A DNA stretch of 64,000 nucleotides from Bacteroidia bacterium (GTDB lineage Bacteria > Bacteroidota > Bacteroidia > NS11-12g > UBA955), in NCBI GenBank assembly GCA_044224315.1, contig JBGAKR010000005.1, positions 21,442 through 85,441 of the forward strand. The letters are read 5' to 3'. Of this stretch, positions 20,771 through 53,239 are shown one piece after another. A program made the position numbers and the translations under genes. The number at the start of each line of letters is the position of its first letter. The stretch's first letter is position 1. Under the pieces are notes generated by a model that was not told where the DNA came from, ran no database searches, and was given only the letters and a program-made list of their open reading frames with translations.

Positions 20771-21052
20771 ATGAACCTCGAAACAATCGTAAAAGAACCA
20801 AACACTCAAATCATTGATGTTCGCACTCCAGCTGAGTTTGCAGGTGGCAGTGTTTTTGGAGCTGTAAATATTCCGTTAAACGAAATTCCGGACCACCTCG
20901 ATCAATTTAAACTATCTGAAAATCCGATTGTGTTTTGTTGTGCCAGCGGAATGCGCAGTGGCCAGGCCACCGGATTTTTACAAGCAAATGGATTTAAAAA
21001 TGCATTCAATGGCGGTCCCTGGACCGATGTGAACTACTTAAAAAATAAATAA
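20771..21052 (+). CDS. Single-domain rhodanese-like sulfurtransferase.
   Basis: Active-site loop CCASGMRSGQA (CX5 with Cys). Rhodanese fold (IIDVRTPAEFAGG...NIPL). ATG at 20771. Confidence 0.8.
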   Translation: MNLETIVKEPNTQIIDVRTPAEFAGGSVFGAVNIPLNEIPDHLDQFKLSENPIVFCCASGMRSGQATGFLQANGFKNAFNGGPWTDVNYLKNK

Positions 21053-21055
21053 AAA

Positions 21056-21364
21056 ATGGGAATACTAGGAAAATTATTTGGCCTTGGGCCAAAGGCTGAT
21101 TTAGGCCAAATGGTATTGGATGGCGCTGTAATAGTAGATGTGCGTACCAAGGGGGAGTTTCAACAGGGGCATGTAAAAGGCTCCGTTAATATTCCGCTGG
21201 ATCAACTGGATAAGGGCATGTCTAAACTGAATAAAAACAAACCTGTAATTACCTGCTGTGCGAGTGGAATGCGCAGTGCTGCAGCAAAAAGCAAACTAAA
21301 AGCTGCGGGTTTTGTGGTAGAAAACGGTGGCAGTTGGGTAAATCTGCGCAAGTACGAAAAATAA
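21056..21364 (+). CDS. Second single-domain rhodanese-like sulfurtransferase; a tandem paralog.
   Basis: Active-site loop CCASGMRSAAA. VIVDVRTKGEFQQGHVKGSVNIPL. Confidence 0.8.
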   Translation: MGILGKLFGLGPKADLGQMVLDGAVIVDVRTKGEFQQGHVKGSVNIPLDQLDKGMSKLNKNKPVITCCASGMRSAAAKSKLKAAGFVVENGGSWVNLRKYEK

Positions 21365-21606
21365 TGTGGGCCTATTTAAAACAATGGAATCTGCTGCGCG
21401 TATTGCGGCTGGGCATCGGAATCAGTTTTATGGTTTCGGCCTATGCCGATAAGCAGGGTTTGTTCTATGCAATTCTCGGCGGATTATTTGTTTTTCAGGC
21501 TGTAACCAATACCGGCTGTGGATTTGGAAGTTGTGCCACCCGCACTTGCAGTGTACCTGCGCAAAATACCGAATCTGCTCCGGTACAATTCGAAGAAATA
21601 AAATGA
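21364..21606 (+). CDS. DUF2892 (YgaP C-terminal-like) small membrane protein.
   Basis: ATG at 21364 overlaps the rhodanese stop (TAATG). Hydrophobic LRLGIGISFMVSAY and the motif TGCGFGSCATRTC typical of DUF2892. In YgaP-type proteins this domain is fused to rhodanese. Confidence 0.55.
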   Translation: MWAYLKQWNLLRVLRLGIGISFMVSAYADKQGLFYAILGGLFVFQAVTNTGCGFGSCATRTCSVPAQNTESAPVQFEEIK

Positions 21607-21899
21607 GCCATTTTAATGAAATAATAAATGGAGATTTACCCGTGTTGGTAGATTTTTCGGCCGAATGGTGCGGCCCCTGTAAAGCCATGGCACCCATACT
21701 GAAAGATTTGAAATCTGCCACTGGCGACAAATTAAAAGTACTAAAGGTAGATGTTGACCAAAACCAGGCATTTGCAGCTTCCATGCAAATTTCTGGGGTA
21801 CCTACCCTGGTGTTGTATAAAGCAGGTAAAATAGTATGGCGCCAATCAGGTGTAGTGCCGTTACACTCGTTAAAAGAAATCGTAAATAAATATATCTGA
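21603..21899 (+). CDS. trxA: Thioredoxin.
   Basis: WCGPCK active site. About 98 aa Trx fold. ATG at 21603. Confidence 0.9.
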   Translation: MSHFNEIINGDLPVLVDFSAEWCGPCKAMAPILKDLKSATGDKLKVLKVDVDQNQAFAASMQISGVPTLVLYKAGKIVWRQSGVVPLHSLKEIVNKYI

Positions 21900-42405: not shown

Positions 42406-43167
42406 ATGAAAAAAGTTTTACTTTCAATTGCACTGATTGCCGGATTGACGTCTTCAGCATTTGGTGTTACTATCGACTGGTCGTTGGATCAGATTTTAAA
42501 ACCCACTCAGGTTAACAGCACTACCGGAAGCGGTTCAACTGTTAATTATGAACTAGTATTCAAAAATAACGGACCCGACAGTGCAAAAATTGGTGATACA
42601 CTTTTGTATCAAATAGGTCTTACCTATACAAATAACAACACAATTGTGGTTGCGCCCAGTGCAAGCAGTTTTTACCTGCGCTTACTTAACCGCAATTTAA
42701 AATCTGGTGATACCATTCACGTTACTGGTAGCTTTTCTTTCGGTTTGTATCCTTACCCTTCAGTTACTGTTAATTGCATCGGTATCGGACACCTTATCAA
42801 TGCTGCCCGTGGTTTGAAATTCGAATCCACTACCATCACCAACAATACCAAAGTGGTTCAAATTACATGGTACAACCCACAAGGCTGGCCTGTTAGCACC
42901 ACTGATATGAATGCCGGAAAAACCTCGGTTTACCCAACAGTGGTTAAAGATCAGTTCACTGTAACGGTGCCTGCTATTGCAGTTGGACAAAATATTACAG
43001 TAAAAGTTTACTCTATTCTGGGCAACCTGATTTCAGAAAAAACTTTTGCTCCCCAAGCCGATAATGCATACAACGTAAATGCTGCAAACCTTGCCAATGG
43101 TACCTACCTGGTAAGTGTTGAACACAACGGTGTAGTAAGCACAACCAAAATTATCGTTCAGAAGTAA
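42406..43167 (+). CDS. Hypothetical secreted protein with a T9SS C-terminal sorting domain.
   Basis: Signal peptide MKKVLLSIALIAGLTSSAFG. CTD ...VYPTVVKDQFTVTV...GTYLVSVEHNGVVSTTKIIVQK. Confidence 0.6.
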   Translation: MKKVLLSIALIAGLTSSAFGVTIDWSLDQILKPTQVNSTTGSGSTVNYELVFKNNGPDSAKIGDTLLYQIGLTYTNNNTIVVAPSASSFYLRLLNRNLKSGDTIHVTGSFSFGLYPYPSVTVNCIGIGHLINAARGLKFESTTITNNTKVVQITWYNPQGWPVSTTDMNAGKTSVYPTVVKDQFTVTVPAIAVGQNITVKVYSILGNLISEKTFAPQADNAYNVNAANLANGTYLVSVEHNGVVSTTKIIVQK

Positions 43168-43183
43168 TCAAGTTCAAAACACA

Positions 43184-43215
43184 TAAAAAAAGAGGCTTTC
43201 GGGCCTCTTTTTTTG
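43184..43215. terminator. Bidirectional intrinsic terminator between 42406-43167 (+) and the YebC gene (-).
   Basis: A7, then agaggc-tttcgg-gcctct hairpin, then T8. Confidence 0.6.
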
Positions 43216-44014: not shown

Positions 44015-45436
44015 TTAAGCTTTATGCTTCAACTTAGAGGCACAAACGAAATCAGTGGTGGGCACGTCGGTTTTGGAAATGGCTGCAAAACCGCCATCTA
44101 CCTCAGTAAAATTGTCCCATCCCCGGGATTTGAGTATAGAAGCGGCTATCATGCTGCGGTAGCCACCGGCGCAATGGATATAAAAATGCTGGTCTTTGGG
44201 AAATTCCGAAATATGGTCGTTGATATAATCCAAAGGCAAAGATTCGGCTTCGTCCACGTGTTCGGCGCTATACTCACCGGGTTTGCGCACATCAATTACC
44301 AAGGGTTTTTCGGATTTAAAACGGTTGGCGAATTCGGCTGCTGAAATACGATCTACGGCATCCGTTTCTTTACCTGCAGCTTGCCAGGCTTTAAAGCCAC
44401 CTTCGAGGAATCCAATTACATAATCGTATCCCACGCGGGCAAGGCGGGTAATTACTTCCTGTTCCCGGTCTGCATCTGTAATGAGCAGTATCTGCTGTTT
44501 AATATCCGGAATTAATGCACCTACCCAAGGGGCAAACTGGCCGTCGATTCCAATGTTAATGCTATTGGGCACAAAACCTTTGTGAAAAACGGCAGGGCTG
44601 CGGGTATCCAGCACCAGCGCACCGGTTTCGTTGGCGGCTGCTTCAAAAGCCTCGGGCGAAAGGGCATTGAGTCCTCTTTTCATTACCGCATCCAGGTGCT
44701 CATAACCATGTTTATTCATGGCCACATTCAGCGGAAAATATGCAGGCGGGGGTAACAAGCCATCAGTAACTTCGGCAATAAATTCAGCTTCGGTCATATC
44801 GGCCCGCAGGGCGTAGTTGAGTTTCTTTTGTTCCCCAATGGTTGAAACTGTTTCCTTGCTCATGTTTTTGCCGCAGGCACTTCCGGCCCCGTGTGCAGGA
44901 TAAACTGTAACTTCATCCTCCAAAGTCATTAACCGGTTTCGCAGCGAGTGAAATAATTTACCAGCCAATTGCTCCTGTGTCATATTGGCGGCTTTTTGTG
45001 CCAAATCGGGGCGACCCACGTCCCCTATAAACAGGGTGTCGCCGGTAAATACTGCCAGATTTTTACCATCTGTATCTTTTAACAGATAGCAGGTACTTTC
45101 CATGGTGTGACCAGGTGTATGCAGCACTTGAAAACGCAGCGAACCAATGTTAAAAATTTCATCATCAGCGGCTATATGCGCATCAAAACTCGGGTTGGCT
45201 TGTGGGCCATAAACGATGGTAGCACCTGTAGCTTTTGCAAGGTCGAGGTGACCGCTTACAAAATCAGCATGGAAATGGGTTTCGAAAATGTATTTAATTT
45301 TTACACCATCGCGATTTGCGCGGTCGATGTATGGTTTTACTTCCCTTAAAGGATCAATAATGGCGGCTTCATTGCCATCTGAAATGTAATACGCACCTTG
45401 GGCAAGGCAGCCAGTGTAGATTTGTTCTATTTGCAT
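44015..45436 (-). CDS. Multidomain sulfur dioxygenase/sulfurtransferase: MBL-fold (persulfide dioxygenase/ETHE1-like) fused to two rhodanese domains (CstB-like).
   Basis: MBL motif ETHFHADFVSG. Two rhodanese modules; the C-terminal one has the active-site Cys loop YIHCAGGYRSM. Confidence 0.75.
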   Translation of the reverse strand: MQIEQIYTGCLAQGAYYISDGNEAAIIDPLREVKPYIDRANRDGVKIKYIFETHFHADFVSGHLDLAKATGATIVYGPQANPSFDAHIAADDEIFNIGSLRFQVLHTPGHTMESTCYLLKDTDGKNLAVFTGDTLFIGDVGRPDLAQKAANMTQEQLAGKLFHSLRNRLMTLEDEVTVYPAHGAGSACGKNMSKETVSTIGEQKKLNYALRADMTEAEFIAEVTDGLLPPPAYFPLNVAMNKHGYEHLDAVMKRGLNALSPEAFEAAANETGALVLDTRSPAVFHKGFVPNSINIGIDGQFAPWVGALIPDIKQQILLITDADREQEVITRLARVGYDYVIGFLEGGFKAWQAAGKETDAVDRISAAEFANRFKSEKPLVIDVRKPGEYSAEHVDEAESLPLDYINDHISEFPKDQHFYIHCAGGYRSMIAASILKSRGWDNFTEVDGGFAAISKTDVPTTDFVCASKLKHKA

Positions 45437-45512
45437 TATTTAAGTGTTAAAAAGATTTAACAAATTTCATTCAAATTATTCAAGAAATCCAATTTTAAGA
45501 CAAAATGTCGGA

Positions 45513-47201
45513 CTACCTGAATGAATAGTCAACACCATACACCTGAGTGAGTAGGGTTTGCGGCGCATCTAAAATTTTTGCGTTCATGGGGGGTGTGGGA
45601 GTAACCGGCGAAAATTGTTTGAGATACGCTTTAACCAATTGGTGCAGGGTTTTGCCTGTATTCTCAGTATTGGTTACCCCTTTTAAACGACATAACATAT
45701 CGGCGGGGTCGCCTTCTCTTTCGCAAGCGGTAAGCACATAAGTTTTATTTATATCCAAAGGTTCTCCCCCAATTTCAACTTTTTTTACCCGGCTGCCTTT
45801 TTCGGCAAATGCATTGAATTCAACATGCATACCATTGAATTTTACGACCCATCCGCCCAGTCTTTCTCCAGCTTCTTTTGCAAAAACATTGTTTAATTCT
45901 TTTTCAAGCCAGGCTTTAATCTGTCCACCAGTGGCATTGCCTTTTCGCACCATACTATCCACTGGCAACATATCAAATAAATAACCCTGGGTAATGGGTA
46001 TATTACCTGTAGAATCGGGTGTAGCTTTGGGCGGGCAAAACCTAAAGCCATTTGAAAGTGCAACATCTGCTTCGGGAAAAGCCCATTTTACCGCATTTAA
46101 AATCAGCGTGTCGATGGTATTTTCAACTACAAAATATCGATACAATGGCAAAGTACTGTACCCTAATATTTCATTAATTTTAGCTAAATATTTTGATTCA
46201 GAATCTTTTACCAATTTATCCATTTTACTGTCTGCTTTTAGCGATTTGGCCTCCACTTCTAGCAGTTGGTATTGGGTTTGAATCAATTTACCCTCGCGGA
46301 AAGTAAGATTCAGTTTACCAGCAAAAGAACCGAAGGCACCGGGCTCTACCACACTGGCATATTTACAAACTATAGGTACTCGCACGCGTTCGTGGGTATC
46401 CCCACCAAGAATAAAATCAACCCCTTCACATTCGGGCATATTGGCCAGCGCAATTTGTTGCGATAATCCCAAATGGGCCAAAATTATTACACTACTGCAT
46501 TTTTCCTGGTTGCGTAAAACATCTACATAATAGGCCAGATTTTCTTCGGGTTTGGTATACACAATTCCCTTGCTGTATGCCGGTGATTGCCTAATGGGCA
46601 CCCAAGGGTCGGTATAGCCCAGAAATCCGATTTTAATATTGCCAACATTCCAGATATAATAAGGTGGAAACACCAATTCACCCTTTTTATTATCGCCCAA
46701 ATCGTGGTATAAATTGGCGCAAACCTTTGGACCGTTTAGTGAGCCCATCAAGGTTTGCATTCTTTTTTTACCATAAATAACCTCCCAGTTTCCGGGTAAA
46801 TATAAATTGTAATTTAGTGCATTTAATATCGGCACATATGCTTCACCCAAAGTTTCAACAGAGAGTTCACTCCCCTGAAACATATCTCCAGTATCTACAA
46901 AAAAAGTATTTGGGTTTGATTTTTTTAATTTCGAGAATAAGGTTGCTAAGCGTGCGTATCCACCGGTTTTTCTGAACACCATTTGGTTATTTTCCCAAAA
47001 CAATTCATCGTGAGCATGAATTTGGCAGTGTACATCGGTAGTTTGTACAATGGTTAGGGTTATATCTTTATTTTTACCATTTTCTGATTCGGTTTCTATA
47101 ACAGTTTCAGTAGAGATATTATCGCCTATTAAGCTATTTGTGAGCCCCACACCTGCTGTCAGCGCTGCAATTTTTTTAATAAAATCTCTTCTGTTTTTCA
47201 T
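45513..47201 (-). CDS. TAT-secreted binuclear metallophosphoesterase of the 5'-nucleotidase/SoxB family; a candidate SoxB-like thiosulfohydrolase.
   Basis: Twin-arginine signal MKNRRDFIKKIAALTAGVG. Metallophosphatase motifs TDVHCQIHAH, FFVDTGDMFQGS, GNWE (aligning to GNHE), GGDTHE. C-terminal 5'-nucleotidase-like domain. The start ATG overlaps the cytochrome stop (ATGA). Confidence 0.65.
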   Translation of the reverse strand: MKNRRDFIKKIAALTAGVGLTNSLIGDNISTETVIETESENGKNKDITLTIVQTTDVHCQIHAHDELFWENNQMVFRKTGGYARLATLFSKLKKSNPNTFFVDTGDMFQGSELSVETLGEAYVPILNALNYNLYLPGNWEVIYGKKRMQTLMGSLNGPKVCANLYHDLGDNKKGELVFPPYYIWNVGNIKIGFLGYTDPWVPIRQSPAYSKGIVYTKPEENLAYYVDVLRNQEKCSSVIILAHLGLSQQIALANMPECEGVDFILGGDTHERVRVPIVCKYASVVEPGAFGSFAGKLNLTFREGKLIQTQYQLLEVEAKSLKADSKMDKLVKDSESKYLAKINEILGYSTLPLYRYFVVENTIDTLILNAVKWAFPEADVALSNGFRFCPPKATPDSTGNIPITQGYLFDMLPVDSMVRKGNATGGQIKAWLEKELNNVFAKEAGERLGGWVVKFNGMHVEFNAFAEKGSRVKKVEIGGEPLDINKTYVLTACEREGDPADMLCRLKGVTNTENTGKTLHQLVKAYLKQFSPVTPTPPMNAKILDAPQTLLTQVYGVDYSFR

Positions 47202-48172
47202 TTATTACGGGCAATATTTTTTTGTATTTTCATTTTATTAAACGGGCCATATTTGTGGGTATTTTCCGAAAAAGTATCGGCAAACGGTCCAAAAGGGTGA
47301 TCAACTGGTTTTTGAGATATATCGGGCCAATCATGGCTTATATCCATATCGGGGCGCGGCAAACTTTCTATATATGCCGCAATGTCCCAGGCTTGTTCTT
47401 CGGTTAATTCCGGCTTTTCAAAGCTTGCCCCATTGGGCATATTATAGCGCAAAAATCCGGCAAGGGTAGAAACCCTGTACAATCCTGCCCCTTGATTAAA
47501 GCTATGATTGCCCCACAGCGGTGGATACAGGTATTCGTTGCCTTTTTTTACCCCATCACCGGCAATTCCATGACAGCGGGTACACAGTGCATTATATTCA
47601 TTTTTACCTAATTCAGGATTGGCAGCCCTATTTAAATAATTCAGTTTTGCGATTCCTGCATTGCGCGGTTTGGATTTGGCCGGAATCCCTCTCCCAACCC
47701 ATAATACATAAGCTTCCATTGCACGCATTTCAAGGCTATTGGTGTCGAGTTTTTTCCCATTTAAGCTTCGTTCTACACAATCATTTATTCGCTTTTTTAC
47801 ACTCTCCACTGTTCCACTTCTGGGTCTGAATTTTGGGTAGTTTGCGGCCACTGCAAGGTAGTTATTTCCATAACTTTTGGTCCCTGCTTCGAGGTGACAA
47901 TTCTGGCAATTCATCCCATTGGTTTGCTGCGCAACCATTCCCTGTGGGCCCAGGTAGAAGGCAGTATGCTCAATTAGTTTACGACCATATTTCACAAGAG
48001 AATCCCGCGAAATGGTATCATTCTTTTTTGTTAAATTTAGCGGCCAATTATAATTATTTAGCAACAAACGCGGCAATAAAATGCAGGTTAAAGAGAATGT
48101 AATTATACCTATTAAAATTCGGGTTTGAATTTTAATTTTTTTCAGTTGCGTTACATTCAATTCAGCCGACAT
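47198..48172 (-). CDS. Membrane-anchored diheme c-type cytochrome, SoxA/TsdA-like.
   Basis: Two CXXCH motifs (CQNCH, CTRCH) about 108 aa apart, with a single extra Cys between them (INDCVERS). LYPPLWG motif. First ATG at 48172; the track's TTG start at 48244 would place a terminator hairpin inside the first codons. Confidence 0.65.
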   Translation of the reverse strand: MSAELNVTQLKKIKIQTRILIGIITFSLTCILLPRLLLNNYNWPLNLTKKNDTISRDSLVKYGRKLIEHTAFYLGPQGMVAQQTNGMNCQNCHLEAGTKSYGNNYLAVAANYPKFRPRSGTVESVKKRINDCVERSLNGKKLDTNSLEMRAMEAYVLWVGRGIPAKSKPRNAGIAKLNYLNRAANPELGKNEYNALCTRCHGIAGDGVKKGNEYLYPPLWGNHSFNQGAGLYRVSTLAGFLRYNMPNGASFEKPELTEEQAWDIAAYIESLPRPDMDISHDWPDISQKPVDHPFGPFADTFSENTHKYGPFNKMKIQKNIARNK

Positions 48173-48228
48173 TGAAGCAACAAATATGTAAAAAACCAGC
48201 GACAATATGGGTATAAAACATAAAAAAA

Positions 48229-48258
48229 GCCTGTTTGCGTGCAAACAGGCTTTTTTTT
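48229..48258. terminator. Intrinsic terminator (bidirectional in shape) downstream of the TonB-dependent receptor gene, separating it from the cytochrome/SoxB-like operon.
   Basis: A7, then gcctgtttgc-gtg-caaacaggc, a perfect 10-bp-per-arm hairpin, then T8. Confidence 0.6.
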
Positions 48259-48276: not shown

Positions 48277-50493
48277 TTAAAAGCTGCCTTTAAGAGATAA
48301 TACAAAATTGCGACCCGGTGCGCTTATACCGGATGCAAACACGCGGTATCGAAGGTCCAGAATGTTTTCAACAGCAAAACCCACCTGCAGGTGTTTGTTT
48401 ACAATCCATTGTCCGCGGATATTGTAGGTTTGCCATGACGGAGTGCGGCCTCGGTCGGAATATTGGGCATTATCCTCACCACTAGGGCTGTAGTCTTTGG
48501 CTTTTTTCCAACCTTGAAACAACACAAAAGCTTCAAGTTGCCATTCATTGGATACCCAGCGCAGTCCGCCACGTCCATGATCTGGCGCTACGTGGTCTAA
48601 CGGAGCCCATGCACTTTTCTCTGTTGCCTTATAACGGCCATAAGTAGTGGTATAATTAAAATCGGCAAACAGATTTTCGATTACGCGCAATTTTGCTGCA
48701 AACCAGGATCCTGTAACATATCCTCCGGCAGTATTGGCCATTTGATAAACGCGGGTCATTTTACCATCATAAAAAAATGAGTCGGCCCCATTAAAAGTAC
48801 TTGTTTGGTCAATCAACAAATTATCGATTTTGGTATAATAGGTGCCTGCCTCAAAGCGCGTATTTTCGTTGGTATAAGAAATATTTAAATCAATACTGCG
48901 GGTTTGTTCTGCTTTTAAATCTTTATTCGGAAAAATTAATTTATTGCCTGCTGCGCTTTCAAACAATTTAGTCATATCATCCACATTGGGGTTTCTAAAA
49001 CCGCTGGCCAGGCTGGCTTTCATAAACAAGCCTTTAATTCCCAGATTTTTAATCACACCCAGATTGTACACCAAATTACTATTTTTTACTGTGGCTTCCG
49101 AATAGGGTAATTTTAAAAAGTTTTGAGCCGTATAATTGGCTTTAAGGTTGTAATTGCTTGCACGGAAACCCGCTTCTACAATAAAATCATCGGGTAAAAT
49201 GGCATAATTTGCGTTTGCAAAAACAGACATGCTGCTGGTTTTTGCTCCACCATCGGCATAGCGGGTATCTGTAATGGAAGTAACAGCCCCGGTATTTACA
49301 TTGGTATTGGTTGCCGTTGATTTTACATCATTTGCAACAAACTCAGCACCTCCCTGGATTTTCAGGTTTTCGAGAAGGCGATACGCGATATCGTAGTTAA
49401 AGGCCGACATCATTACTTTATCCACCTGTGCTTTTTCGTTGGTTGCTTTAAAACTACGGGTAACGCGCCCAACTTCGGCAAATTGATTGCTGAGAATTAC
49501 GCGATGCTTAAGTCGATCTGTAGAAGGCAGGTTTAAGGCATAGCTGATAAAACGACGGTTTTGGGGTGCGTAATTCCAGGTAGCAAATCGCAGGGCACCA
49601 TTGCGCACATCGGTAAGGCGGTCATATCTGGGTACCACATCGGTAGTGCTCAATTGTACATTAAGCATATGCGTTAATTTTCCTGTTTTCAGGGCCAGTT
49701 TAGAAAACAAATCATTTTGTACATAGCCCGAACCTTTTTGAACGAAGGGATCATAATTACGCAGTTGCGTATCACGCCCATTAATTCTGTCGATGTAATA
49801 ATTACGGTAACCGAATGTATCGTTTCCTGTAAAATTGCGCTGTTGACCCATTCTCAAATCGCCAAAATCGCTGTGGGTAATATTAAATAACCAAGCCAGT
49901 TTTCGGCCCGATACTTCGAAGTTTATATTGGCAATGGAAGCATTGGCAGCACTCATATAACGGAGATTGGCATTGGCATTAGCAAAGCCAAACTTGTGTT
50001 CCCTGAATTTAGGATCTCTGGATTTAAGGTAAATAACCCCACCCAATGCATCGGAGCCATACAGGGTAGAACCGCTTCCGAAGAAAATTTCGGTTCTGTC
50101 GAGCATAAACTGGTCCAGGGTAATTAAATCCTGCAAATGCCCGGCGCGGTAAGTGGCATTGTTCATGCGCACCCCATCTACCACCATTAATACACGGCTT
50201 GCTTCAAAGCCTCTAAGTACAGGGCTTCCGCCACCCAACTGGCTTTTTTGCATAAATACATAACCGGTTTGTGCAAGTACATCGGCCATAGTTCCTTGTT
50301 GTGCCATGGCAATTTGTTTAGCATTGATGGCTTCTATCTGCCTTGTATTGTTAAGGCGTTTATCGCCCATTCTTTGGGCAGAAATTAATATTTCATTCAT
50401 GGATTCTATTTCGGCAGAATCCGGACCGGTAGATTGCCCGAATGCAGGCAATATAAGCAGGCAGGCTATACCCACCAGTAAGCTTTTTTTCAT
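48277..50493 (-). CDS. TonB-dependent outer membrane receptor.
   Basis: Signal peptide MKKSLLVGIACLLILPAFGQ. Plug domain followed by a 22-strand barrel region. C-terminal ...LSLKGSF with a terminal Phe. Confidence 0.85.
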   Translation of the reverse strand: MKKSLLVGIACLLILPAFGQSTGPDSAEIESMNEILISAQRMGDKRLNNTRQIEAINAKQIAMAQQGTMADVLAQTGYVFMQKSQLGGGSPVLRGFEASRVLMVVDGVRMNNATYRAGHLQDLITLDQFMLDRTEIFFGSGSTLYGSDALGGVIYLKSRDPKFREHKFGFANANANLRYMSAANASIANINFEVSGRKLAWLFNITHSDFGDLRMGQQRNFTGNDTFGYRNYYIDRINGRDTQLRNYDPFVQKGSGYVQNDLFSKLALKTGKLTHMLNVQLSTTDVVPRYDRLTDVRNGALRFATWNYAPQNRRFISYALNLPSTDRLKHRVILSNQFAEVGRVTRSFKATNEKAQVDKVMMSAFNYDIAYRLLENLKIQGGAEFVANDVKSTATNTNVNTGAVTSITDTRYADGGAKTSSMSVFANANYAILPDDFIVEAGFRASNYNLKANYTAQNFLKLPYSEATVKNSNLVYNLGVIKNLGIKGLFMKASLASGFRNPNVDDMTKLFESAAGNKLIFPNKDLKAEQTRSIDLNISYTNENTRFEAGTYYTKIDNLLIDQTSTFNGADSFFYDGKMTRVYQMANTAGGYVTGSWFAAKLRVIENLFADFNYTTTYGRYKATEKSAWAPLDHVAPDHGRGGLRWVSNEWQLEAFVLFQGWKKAKDYSPSGEDNAQYSDRGRTPSWQTYNIRGQWIVNKHLQVGFAVENILDLRYRVFASGISAPGRNFVLSLKGSF

Positions 50494-51148: not shown

Positions 51149-53239
51149 TTATTTAACCATGAGTTTGGTAGTTGAAATAGCGCCGTTTAAACTAACCTGA
51201 AGCATATAAATTCCGGGACTTATGGCTTTACCTAAAGGCAAATTCAGAATAGCATTTGCGGTATTGGAATTATACAATTCAGCCAAATTTTTACCTGACA
51301 AATCCAGCAGATTTATTTGCACATTTTTTGCGTTACCATTTGGCAAAGTTATTTGCAACATTCCTTCGGCAGGATTGGGATAAACCCGAACCGAACCTTG
51401 CGCCATTGTATTTGTATTCAGTACCTGATTTATATTAATGTCATCCAAAAAGAAATTATTGCCCCCATCACTTTTAAACTCAAACATTACCATCATATTC
51501 TGCCTTAATGCTGCATTTATTTTAGATAGATCTACGGTCACCGACTTCCATTGCTCCGCATCGGGAGGAAAAAAATCATACACATATTTTGGGGTGTTTT
51601 TTACTGTATTGAGATTCTGTCCGGAGGCGGAATAACGGTTAATCCAGGTTTTACCACAATCTGCCGAAGTGCGCACTGTAAGTACATCTTCGGTGCCTGT
51701 AGTAACATTCTGTTTATTGCGCTGTACAAATGAATATTTAAAAGTGAGAGAAGCATCGGTGCCGGAAAGGTCGTAATGATCCGTAATTAATCTGTAATAA
51801 AAATCTGATTTGAAAGGGCTATTGGCCACCATTAAAGAACGACTGCCGTGAGTAGAAGCGCTGCTTGTAGATATCCAATTGTCGGAATTATTGGTTTCGG
51901 TATACCAATTGGCAGAAATCTCCGACTCGAAAGATTCTTTCAAAAGATTAACATTACCCGGCCAGGGATCATATACACGCACCTGTAATCGGCGTCGCAG
52001 CGTATCAGATCCATTCGCATTTGAAACAATTAAAACCGCCTCCTGCATACCTGGAGTTGAGAATGTAACCAGGGGATTTACCAGGTTTGAGGTACTTGGG
52101 TTTCCACCAGGGAAAAACCAATTGTAACTAACCGATCCGGTATACTGATAACTCATATCGGTAAATTGCACTGCACTGCCTGTACAAACGGTTTTATTTT
52201 CGGCAAAAAAGAATGCTTTGGGTTTGCAATTGCTAACCGGATTCAGCACCCCCGTTGCTAAGAGATTTTCATTGGTAATTAGCATCGACCTAAACTTATT
52301 TATGGTAGCAAGCATGCGTGATTTTTGGCCTTCACTAAACATGTTTTGGCAAGCACCATCCGAATAATCCATATAATTTTCATATTGATCTGGTAAATCA
52401 GGGTCGTCAGTTGCGCAGGTATTTATTTCAGAGGGGAGACATACACCATAACTAGGTCCGCTAACGGGTGGAGTATCGTCCACTTTATCATCATCTCCAC
52501 ATCCTCCTTGAAAAGTATGAAATAAGCCCAGCCAGTGGCCGGTTTCATGGGTAAGTACACGGCCGTAATTAGGCCTTAGACCTGCTGGGTTAGCGGCAGT
52601 ACCAATGGAGCCTACCATGTCGTGACGAATAATTACACCATCCGTGCGGTACAAACCCGTCCAGGGAAACTGCGCGTATCCTAAAATGGTGCCAGCTACA
52701 CCCGATTGTGATGCAATATTTTTTACCACCCAGATATTGAAATAATGATCTGCTGGCCATACGCTGAGTAATTTAATGGCATCGTCACCGTTTTCAGTCA
52801 GTGGAGTTTCATAACGCACTATACCCTCTGTGCAGCGGCCAAAATTATCTTTTGTTGCCAACTTAAATTCGATATTACAATCGGCTGCTATGCCTTTAAA
52901 AACATCGCGTGTTTTATTGCTATCGGCATTTTGTCTGCGGTAATCTATATTCAACAATCGAATCGCATCCTCACATTGGGCTTTCGAAATATTTTCGGGT
53001 CCTCCATTGTGAAATATATGAAATACCACCGGAATAATAATAGTAGCGGCTCTGGAGGAAAGGCCTGTTGCGGTTTTTACAGTGGCATTAAAATTGGCTT
53101 CCCTATTTAATATTGTAGGGTCAGCAATTATTTGTTCTTTGTATTTTAAATCCGTTCCGCAAGGTTCGGTTTTTTTATTCTGTGCGCAAAGCACAAAGCT
53201 GAATACAACAGCTGCTATCAGTGTTAATTGTTTTTTCAT
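51149..53239 (-). CDS. Secreted M43-family (pappalysin/cytophagalysin-like) zinc metalloprotease with a T9SS C-terminal sorting domain.
   Basis: Signal peptide MKKQLTLIAAVVFSFVLCAQN. Zinc-binding HETGHWLGLFHTF plus the downstream GGCGDDD. CTD VRVYPNPAEGMLQITL...GIYMLQVSLNGAISTTKLMVK. Confidence 0.8.
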   Translation of the reverse strand: MKKQLTLIAAVVFSFVLCAQNKKTEPCGTDLKYKEQIIADPTILNREANFNATVKTATGLSSRAATIIIPVVFHIFHNGGPENISKAQCEDAIRLLNIDYRRQNADSNKTRDVFKGIAADCNIEFKLATKDNFGRCTEGIVRYETPLTENGDDAIKLLSVWPADHYFNIWVVKNIASQSGVAGTILGYAQFPWTGLYRTDGVIIRHDMVGSIGTAANPAGLRPNYGRVLTHETGHWLGLFHTFQGGCGDDDKVDDTPPVSGPSYGVCLPSEINTCATDDPDLPDQYENYMDYSDGACQNMFSEGQKSRMLATINKFRSMLITNENLLATGVLNPVSNCKPKAFFFAENKTVCTGSAVQFTDMSYQYTGSVSYNWFFPGGNPSTSNLVNPLVTFSTPGMQEAVLIVSNANGSDTLRRRLQVRVYDPWPGNVNLLKESFESEISANWYTETNNSDNWISTSSASTHGSRSLMVANSPFKSDFYYRLITDHYDLSGTDASLTFKYSFVQRNKQNVTTGTEDVLTVRTSADCGKTWINRYSASGQNLNTVKNTPKYVYDFFPPDAEQWKSVTVDLSKINAALRQNMMVMFEFKSDGGNNFFLDDININQVLNTNTMAQGSVRVYPNPAEGMLQITLPNGNAKNVQINLLDLSGKNLAELYNSNTANAILNLPLGKAISPGIYMLQVSLNGAISTTKLMVK

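Follow-up and report, generated by a model that had tools for sequence, protein, structure and literature searches.

Three adjacent genes on the minus strand of a Bacteroidia bacterium genome (GenBank assembly GCA_044224315.1, contig JBGAKR010000005.1, positions 21,442 to 85,441) raise the question of whether thiosulfate could be oxidised by a diheme cytochrome and a SoxB-like hydrolase in a system that has no SoxYZ. The whole stretch analysed, hereafter the window, is 64,000 nucleotides (64 kb) long, and all window coordinates count from its first letter. A first-pass annotation, made from the letters alone, had read the three genes as a candidate sulfur-oxidation module, non-canonical in that SoxYZ and SoxX were missing, and had singled out the GNWE motif of the hydrolase as unusual. 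The module is present as first described, in open reading frames (ORFs) that span 47198–48244 (348 aa), 45513–47201 (562 aa) and 44015–45436 (473 aa), and it is a reduced three-gene copy of a sulfur cluster that is common in Bacteroidota. We consider it reasonably probable that it represents a cut-down Bacteroidota version of a SoxYZ-independent route for the oxidation of thiosulfate and polythionates. Its features are as follows:

47198..48172, minus strand: tsdA-like gene, encoding a membrane-anchored diheme c-type cytochrome (Pfam, phmmer, BLASTP and orthologue alignment)
45513..47201, minus strand: soxB-like gene, encoding a two-domain dinuclear metallophosphoesterase-fold hydrolase, exported by twin-arginine translocation (Tat), with GNWE as motif III (Pfam, NCBIfam and the match to 2wdc)
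47198..47201, minus strand: ATGA, in which the tsdA stop (TGA) overlaps the start (ATG) of the soxB-like gene (read directly from the sequence)
44015..45436, minus strand: gene for a CstB-like persulfide dioxygenase–rhodanese (Pfam and matches to 3tp9/3r2u)

The cytochrome, the hydrolase and the persulfide dioxygenase

Judged by its sequence, the product of the first gene is a clear TsdA homologue, in keeping with its original placement among the SoxA and TsdA cytochromes. It exceeds the Pfam cut-offs for both SoxA-TsdA_cyt-c (54.6 bits; cut-off 27) and Cytochrom_C, and phmmer searches of the PDB return A. vinosum TsdA (4wq7 and 4wqc, expect values (E) of 2e-38 and 2.8e-39), with SoxA matched weakly (E = 1e-7); BLASTP gives 38% identity to TsdA over 195 aa (E = 1e-46), and no peroxidase matches were seen. 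The heme motifs, CQNCH (C113–H117) and CTRCH (C221–H225), flank the lone Cys that the first-pass annotation had picked out as a possible heme ligand. This residue, Cys156 in RINDCVERS, aligns with the Cys of RIGDCFERS in 4wq7, namely Cys96 of A. vinosum TsdA (Cys138 in C. jejuni), which ligates heme 1, and it is predicted to be the distal ligand of the active-site heme. Further along, an FLRYNMP motif aligns with HKMP of the A. vinosum enzyme and places M269 at the position of Met209 (Met255 in C. jejuni, where it ligates heme 2 in an Asn-Met arrangement; PMC5146829). The heme 2 arrangement of the window TsdA is likewise Asn-Met, as in C. jejuni, and the best PDB match is in fact the K208N variant of A. 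vinosum TsdA (4wqc). Both CxxCH motifs, Cys156 and N268-M269-P270 are invariant in the 63–64 orthologues available from related loci (63/63 for Cys156, the conservation of which had been named as a check, and 64/64 for Asn-Met-Pro), and Arg residues are retained at the positions of R82, R92 and R99 of A. vinosum TsdA. All the sequence hallmarks of TsdA that were checked are present in this cytochrome: two CxxCH motifs in a two-domain fold, the Cys at the ligand position and the Met of heme 2.

The window TsdA departs from the A. vinosum (4wq7) and C. jejuni enzymes in three respects: where these have a cleaved signal peptide, it and all of its orthologues carry an N-terminal hydrophobic anchor; its partner gene encodes a SoxB-like hydrolase, not tsdB; and it has a C-terminal extension of ~30 residues (DWPD..KP.DHPFGPF..KYGPF; 47198–47330, residues ~305–335) that lies beyond the region aligned with A. 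vinosum TsdA. This tail is kept in all Bacteroidota TsdA orthologues, including the plasmid copies of Pontibacter, Hymenobacter and Runella, and is absent from a Bradyrhizobium homologue; it may be a docking element.

The second gene product is, on the evidence of profiles and alignments, SoxB-like, but not a canonical SoxB. Its leader, MKNRRDFIKK, passes the NCBIfam model TAT_signal_seq (17.7 bits; cut-off 16.7), which bears out the twin-arginine export proposed at the outset, and Pfam recognizes both Metallophos and 5_nucleotid_C domains. The best NCBIfam model is that of SoxB (TIGR04486), with 244.2 bits against an equivalog cut-off of 550, covering model positions 104–555 only, whereas all nucleotidase models score ≤134 bits; those of UshA, NadN and CpdB give 67, 49 and 64 bits, respectively, and none reaches its cut-off (600, 436 and 486). 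Similarly, among solved structures the strongest match is to T. thermophilus SoxB (2wdc), at E = 7e-36, as against 4e-19 for the best 5'-nucleotidase. With canonical SoxB (T. thermophilus 2wdc and Paracoccus) the protein has in common Tat export, the two-domain fold, the ligands of a dinuclear metal site, a Trp in place of the nucleotidase catalytic His, and a G-x-R-W/F motif in the C-terminal domain. It differs in its low identity (~25%) and sub-threshold model score, in the Asn of motif III, in the absence of soxYZ, soxAX and soxCD from the neighbourhood, and in lacking an insert of ~42 residues after motif I, which is present in the SoxBs of Rhodobacter, Paracoccus and Allomeiothermus, and missing from all members of the window clade.

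The motif III sequences, as seen in the multiple alignment, separate these groups:

True nucleotidases: GNHEFD or GNHDFD
Four canonical SoxBs: S/Y-HWE-W/Y
A signal-less clade of ~480 residues (Novosphingobium, Bosea, Bradyrhizobium, Hymenobacter): A/V-HWE/D-FAYG
Window clade: GNWEVIYG

The His and Asp of GNHE(F)D form the catalytic dyad of E. coli-type nucleotidases. In the window clade the His is replaced by Trp and the Asp, three residues later, by Ile or Val in 81/81 sequences (GNWEVI versus GNHEFD). This clade and SoxB have in common both the Trp and the missing dyad Asp; by contrast, the metal ligand of the motif is the Asn of nucleotidases (GNWE, residues 137–140), where the four canonical SoxBs have His (SHWE or YHWE). 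To place the motif in its family, 1.84 billion cluster representatives were searched, and those of 430–700 aa among the 150 best matches were aligned with seven references and the query. GNW was the commonest form in the resulting 66 full-length representatives (38), followed by GNH (19) and HWE (9), and its occurrence goes together with that of a C-terminal domain motif, G-aromatic-R-aromatic, at the place where most GNH-type sequences have GGGIRA. The first-pass annotation was, therefore, right about the presence of GNWE, but not about its oddity: since canonical SoxB itself has HWE and GNW(E/D) is more frequent among the relatives than any other form, GNWE is, by this comparison, the normal signature of the branch, and the exchange of His for Trp is a signature of SoxB-type proteins. 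Moreover, in the disulfide-linked SoxB–SoxYZ structure of T. thermophilus (4uwq), comparison with 2wdc reveals a Trp-to-Cys change at precisely this position; therefore, the SoxB Trp is probably located beside the carrier cysteine.

These observations also bear on the possibility that the phosphoesterase serves phosphorus scavenging as a common periplasmic nucleotidase or phosphodiesterase, and that its position beside tsdA is incidental. Public annotations lean this way, describing the hydrolase as a 5'-nucleotidase or bifunctional metallophosphatase/5'-nucleotidase and the cytochrome simply as a 'c-type cytochrome'. Structure prediction would also permit it: although SoxB (4uwq/2wdc) comes first by expect value when an AlphaFold2 model of the protein (mean confidence, pLDDT, 72) is compared with the PDB using Foldseek, the TM-scores of 0.61–0.68 are alike for SoxB and nucleotidases, and the fold, therefore, does not discriminate. 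However, the replaced dyad, and nucleotidase model scores that lie far under their cut-offs and under the score for SoxB, make this reading highly improbable, and the assignment to the SoxB side of the superfamily, made at the outset, is upheld. Its exact placement is another matter: in a neighbour-joining tree of SoxB, SoxB-like and nucleotidase sequences, the window clade and canonical SoxB each receive 100% bootstrap support, and within the signal-less clade a core of three members receives 90%. The tree does not resolve the order of the deep branches, and we consequently claim no sister relationship to canonical SoxB.

Within the clade of 81 sequences, the RR pair of the leader, all six metal ligands (D56, H58, D106, N138, H243 and H270), W139, E140 and R387 are invariant. 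There are also eight conserved Cys residues (C59, C161, C235, C258, C279, C389, C493 and C504), six of which are invariant, with C258 and C279 found in 79/81 and 80/81 sequences, respectively. C59 directly follows the metal ligand H58 and C389 lies two residues past R387; both are missing in a Pontibacter homologue with 44% identity. Homologues of the hydrolase number more than 6,000 at E < 1e-10. The top 120 have 66–69% identity, except for one fragment at 95%, and all of those with a named organism are from Bacteroidota; the nearest clusters at the 50% identity level come from Bacteroidales, Bacillota, Hyphomicrobium and Armatimonadota. The signal-less clade (motif AHWEFAYG; loci L082, on Novosphingobium pSA3, L088 and L089) occurs in alphaproteobacterial sulfide-detoxification clusters, together with genes for a persulfide dioxygenase, YeeE/DUF6691, a phosphatase–FAD oxidoreductase fusion, TauE and a sulfite oxidase; its members would be cytoplasmic relatives of SoxB, provided that the start codons are right.

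The third gene product had been described as a CstB-like persulfide dioxygenase fused to two rhodaneses, and the searches agree. Pfam finds Lactamase_B and two Rhodanese stretches, and there are full-length matches to 3tp9 from Alicyclobacillus (E = 1.8e-70, residues 3–452) and 3r2u from S. aureus (E = 1.4e-58). The protein is collinear with these CstB-type enzymes: a metallo-β-lactamase (MBL) fold with the HxHxD...H...D metal motif (ETHFHADF, HTPGH and GDxxFxGDVGRPD) is followed by a Cys-less middle rhodanese-homology domain and a C-terminal catalytic rhodanese (C422, in CAGGYRS). By all the features tested, it is predicted to be a persulfide dioxygenase–rhodanese fusion of this type, and, as it has no signal peptide, it should be cytoplasmic. 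Its setting differs from that of CstB, in that the gene adjoins those of periplasmic thiosulfate enzymes, and not the cst operon partners CstA, SQR and TauE.

The related cluster in other Bacteroidota

The gene pair turned up in at least 599 stretches of the species-representative genomes scanned, from which 80 loci were kept for mapping; these come from Flavobacterium, Daejeonella, Pedobacter, Haliscomenobacter, Chitinophagaceae, Saprospiraceae, Cytophagales and others. Mapping of the neighbours reveals a same-strand cluster of ~11 kb, with the order [TauE]–persulfide dioxygenase-rhodanese–DUF202–thioredoxin–rhodanese–rhodanese–Usp–split YeeE/DUF6691 transporter–TsdA–(DsrE)–SoxB-like–(DsrE)–OprD-family porin–Crp. 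Orthologues of the persulfide dioxygenase–rhodanese, at 61–67% identity, are present in 43/80 loci. Where there is enough sequence to judge (69 loci), tsdA directly precedes the hydrolase gene in 57, from several Bacteroidota orders, and elsewhere in the locus in a further four. The pairing recurs with divergent homologues on Runella and Pontibacter plasmids and beside a TsdA-like cytochrome gene in Bradyrhizobium, and on a Hymenobacter plasmid both genes sit in one cluster, with those for an OprD porin and a DsrE-like protein between them. Linkage that is retained across orders and between such divergent pairs is difficult to reconcile with incidental adjacency to a nucleotidase, although there are a few loci in which the hydrolase gene is found amid unrelated genes. 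The sulfur context of the module is, thus, independently supported by a cluster conserved in 80 Bacteroidota loci. Its non-canonical nature, as first proposed, is borne out as well: tblastn searches with SoxX, SoxY, SoxZ, SoxA and SoxC found none of the five in the window or in any of 81 Bacteroidota loci, and phmmer searches of the window with SoxY and SoxZ were equally negative.

The cluster, or parts of it, is plasmid-borne in three Cytophagales: Runella slithyformis (L081, pRUNSL04, which carries the same cluster at 59% identity), Pontibacter (L084, Paks1) and Hymenobacter (L085); one of these plasmids is mobilizable. Flavobacterium petrolei has two chromosomal copies (L004 and L069), and, together with the plasmid-borne copies, this suggests horizontal movement of the sulfur island. 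Three paralogous genes for metallophosphatases are found on the Pontibacter plasmid, the same number as in Erythrobacter flavus (see below). Two metagenome-assembled genome records titled 'uncultured Bifidobacterium sp.' (L005 and L055) contain a typical Bacteroidota cluster at 67% identity, and their label looks wrong.

A common feature of these loci that the window lacks is a gene for a DsrE-like protein. Such a gene adjoins the hydrolase gene in 47/68 related loci (examples are L028 8694–9140, L053 6463–6888 and L081 7573–7989), separates tsdA from the hydrolase gene in 17 of the 69 for which the upstream sequence suffices, and is not found nearby in 18/68. All 54 of the DsrE-like ORFs encode a signal peptide for the general secretory (Sec) pathway and a single invariant Cys (54/54) in an F-x-a-C-E motif, making the protein a candidate periplasmic sulfur carrier in place of SoxYZ. 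It is, therefore, conceivable that the hydrolase takes part in a carrier-based, Sox-like cycle and acts not on free tetrathionate, but on a Cys-S-thiosulfonate held by a protein or a low-molecular-weight thiol; in the relatives, the DsrE-like protein would receive its load either directly from TsdA, in the manner of SoxAX and SoxY, or through chemical reaction with tetrathionate. There is chemical precedent, since Metallosphaera DsrE3A reacts with tetrathionate to yield a protein Cys-S-thiosulfonate (PMC4175335), the same chemical group that SoxB encounters on SoxY (PMC5336275), and the probable proximity of the motif III Trp to the carrier cysteine in 4uwq is also consistent with such a substrate. 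However, the connection between DsrE and a SoxB-type hydrolase is one of gene neighbourhood and analogy, the protein lacks the insert that follows motif I in canonical SoxB and that might have a part in carrier binding, a quarter or so of the loci do without the gene, and no DsrE-like gene was detected in the window, even by profile at E up to 10. For the window we regard a carrier-based cycle as unlikely, and continue to prefer hydrolysis of tetrathionate itself.

Transcription boundaries and neighbouring genes

Beyond the module, the following features delimit the transcription unit or relate to the cluster:

48222..48257, minus strand: intrinsic terminator of the upstream TonB-dependent receptor gene, with a 16-bp stem and a T-run
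43185..43214, minus strand: next strong terminator downstream on this strand, 3' of yebC
20771..21899, plus strand: rhodanese–rhodanese–small membrane protein–thioredoxin set, probably accessory (tblastn with cluster proteins of L028 and L053, Pfam and ORFs)

The start of tsdA is most likely the ATG at 48172, giving a protein of 324 aa: the TTG at 48244, with which the listed ORF begins, was rejected because it sits within the stem of the strong terminator (48257–48222), and translation from the ATG yields an N-terminus of ~17 residues followed by a transmembrane helix, a layout that matches the orthologues. The terminator is the 5' boundary of the tsdA transcription unit. Between tsdA, the soxB-like gene, the persulfide dioxygenase–rhodanese gene and yebC, no terminator of comparable strength was found; weak five-pair matches to the terminator consensus, at 47477–47461, 46796–46784 and 44128–44115, all fall within coding regions. 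The ATGA overlap (47201–47198) is real, and had been taken to argue for co-translation; as a general coupling this does not hold, as the overlap is peculiar to the window and spacers of 1–70 nt separate the two genes in the orthologous loci examined.

Just upstream of tsdA is a TonB-dependent receptor gene (48277–50493, minus strand), the product of which is of the heme/hemoglobin-receptor type, but scores below the model cut-offs. It was considered as an operon member and rejected: having its own strong terminator ahead of tsdA, it belongs to a separate transcription unit, and the clusters of the relatives contain an OprD-family porin, never such a receptor.

The sulfur genes of the window thus comprise the three of the module, amid housekeeping genes, and the rhodanese–rhodanese–small protein–thioredoxin set, which lies 22 kb away, directly beside the L17/rpoA/S4/S11/S13 operon. 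This set encodes two single-domain rhodaneses (both with CCASGMRS), an 80-aa membrane protein with a Cys-rich C-terminal tail (GCGFGSCATRTC) and no Pfam match, and a thioredoxin. It corresponds to the rhodanese–rhodanese–(small protein)–thioredoxin segment of the relatives' cluster, and an identical arrangement occurs on a metagenome contig (L093); it is, therefore, a probable accessory to the module. Profile and pairwise searches of all window ORFs found no YeeE, OprD, TauE or Crp, nor, as already mentioned, DsrE, and an Rfam scan of the window gave no matches. Exact matches to the RpoA of the window were found on metagenome contigs only, among them one from a TARA sample, and the nearest hydrolase is the 95%-identical fragment, which comes from a sequencing run; the source is, therefore, an uncultured aquatic lineage of Bacteroidota. 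Elsewhere in the window are a secreted M43 peptidase with a PKD domain and a type IX secretion C-terminal sorting domain (51149–53239, minus strand) and a further secreted protein (ORF 42406–43167, plus strand), in which a type IX sorting domain was judged by eye; these proteins fit a Bacteroidota origin and have no relation to the sulfur module.

A proposed route and its precedents

Family assignments, catalytic residues, export signals, gene linkage and conservation are established directly; from these we infer each of the enzymatic steps that follow. TsdA would be anchored to the inner membrane by its N-terminal helix, with the heme domain in the periplasm, and would oxidise thiosulfate at the His/Cys heme, via a Cys-S-thiosulfonate, to tetrathionate; such a mechanism is established for TsdA (PMC4423706). 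The electrons would reach the respiratory chain by way of the His/Met heme. The Tat-exported SoxB-like dimetal hydrolase, presumably made in step with TsdA, would then cleave a terminal S–SO3 bond, most likely that of tetrathionate, to give sulfate, sulfane sulfur and thiosulfate, a net reaction identical to that of tetrathionate hydrolase. Finally, sulfane sulfur reaching the cytoplasm as persulfide would be converted by the CstB-like enzyme to sulfite or thiosulfate, products that could re-enter the TsdA step.

By analogy, the closest precedent is the TsdA–SoxB–Sdo pathway of Erythrobacter flavus 21-3 (Zhang et al., ISME J 2020; PMC7608252). In that organism, mutants that have lost tsdA or the gene of a SoxB-like '5'-nucleotidase' no longer show any thiosulfate-dependent formation of sulfur; tetrathionate is made from thiosulfate by TsdA, the SoxB-like protein is needed for the conversion of tetrathionate to sulfate and zero-valent sulfur, and the sulfur is oxidised by MBL-fold dioxygenases, one of which, SdoA, is an MBL–rhodanese encoded in the same cluster, with no SoxYZ. 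The window module matches this system in gene content: in both, tsdA is clustered with a soxB-like gene annotated as a 5'-nucleotidase and with one for an MBL–rhodanese dioxygenase. The E. flavus TsdA (36 kDa) is, like that of the window, larger than the A. vinosum enzyme. The differences are that E. flavus belongs to another phylum; that the window clade has the Tat leader, GNWE and eight conserved Cys residues; and that in the window's relatives the module is joined by a DsrE-like protein, a split YeeE transporter and a porin of the OprD type, of which no mention was seen in the passages of PMC7608252 consulted. A supplementary table of that paper lists two Bacteroidetes genomes (Hymenobacter and Maribacter) with tsdA and soxB homologues and no soxYZ. 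A pathway of TsdA, a SoxB-like protein and an MBL–rhodanese without SoxYZ, which had at first been assumed to be new, was, therefore, already published, and the idea is correspondingly less novel. Uncharacterised so far are the hydrolase subfamily of Bacteroidota, its constant association with an anchored TsdA, and the DsrE-like protein that usually accompanies it; a search of the available literature collection found no paper on the Bacteroidota cluster or on its DsrE-like component.

The proposed hydrolase step may also be compared with that of tetrathionate hydrolase (TetH/TTH), which similarly acts after a tetrathionate-making enzyme. TetH, however, is a β-propeller protein, an acidophile enzyme of unrelated fold, and its partner is thiosulfate:quinone oxidoreductase, as opposed to TsdA here. 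Within the S4-intermediate pathway, it is described as converting tetrathionate to thiosulfate, sulfur and sulfate (PMC10859504; PMC9426585).

Several observations weigh against thiosulfate oxidation by this route. The hydrolase shares only ~25% identity with canonical SoxB and falls below the equivalog cut-off; in 8/69 related loci there is no tsdA within 7 kb of the hydrolase gene; and the window has no YeeE importer, DsrE-like protein, porin, TauE or Crp, such that the steps from the hydrolase to the dioxygenase are here without a visible link. In E. flavus, moreover, the tetrathionate-to-sulfur step was given to SoxB from genetics and from the stoichiometry of sulfur intermediates in mutants, and neither PMC7608252 nor its 2022 follow-up contains purified-enzyme evidence for it. 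In the window clade, the functions of both the hydrolase and TsdA, and with them the substrate of the former and the direction of the latter, are predictions from sequence. The direction of TsdA, in particular, cannot be read from its sequence, because heme 2 has the Asn-Met arrangement of C. jejuni TsdA, an enzyme whose physiological role is tetrathionate reduction (PMC5146829).

This last point invites the converse proposal, namely, that the module serves tetrathionate reduction or detoxification, with TsdA running reductively, and the hydrolase and dioxygenase handling the reactive sulfur species that result; TsdA enzymes are, indeed, described as bidirectional (PMC6879331). However, an O2-dependent persulfide dioxygenase and a sulfite exporter in the cluster indicate oxidation, and once tetrathionate had been reduced to thiosulfate, a sulfate-releasing hydrolase would be left without a role. 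Moreover, the carriers include Flavobacterium, Chitinophagaceae, Saprospiraceae and Daejeonella, which are mainly aerobic heterotrophs. A reductive function thus seems to us decidedly improbable, more so than the carrier-based cycle, and oxidation of thiosulfate via tetrathionate remains the reading that we favour.

On a more tentative note, and with rather more doubt than conviction, we suggest that the GNWE hydrolase could be the founder of an uncharacterised class, that of a neutral-pH, periplasmic, metal-dependent S-sulfonate hydrolase, which would act on tetrathionate or on protein- or thiol-bound thiosulfonate, and work with TsdA and, in most Bacteroidota, with a DsrE-type Cys carrier that replaces SoxYZ. 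If such a class exists, it would constitute a second, independently assembled 'Sox-like' cycle, this would be the first biochemical function for the large GNW(E/D) branch of the 5'-nucleotidase superfamily, and abundant aquatic and soil Bacteroidota would be unrecognised thiosulfate oxidisers. The hydrolase also offers a tractable test of the one genetically supported claim that a SoxB-type enzyme can work without SoxYZ.

For the window itself, the outcome is more modest: it holds a trimmed three-gene copy of the cluster, in which GNWE is normal for its branch. A sulfur specialist would not find this surprising, but the system is widespread and easily testable. In water, sediment and soil, Bacteroidota rank with the most abundant heterotrophs. 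Should the pair indeed turn thiosulfate, via tetrathionate, into sulfate and sulfane sulfur, it would escape any survey of sulfur-cycle genes in which soxB, soxYZ, dsr or tetH alone are counted.

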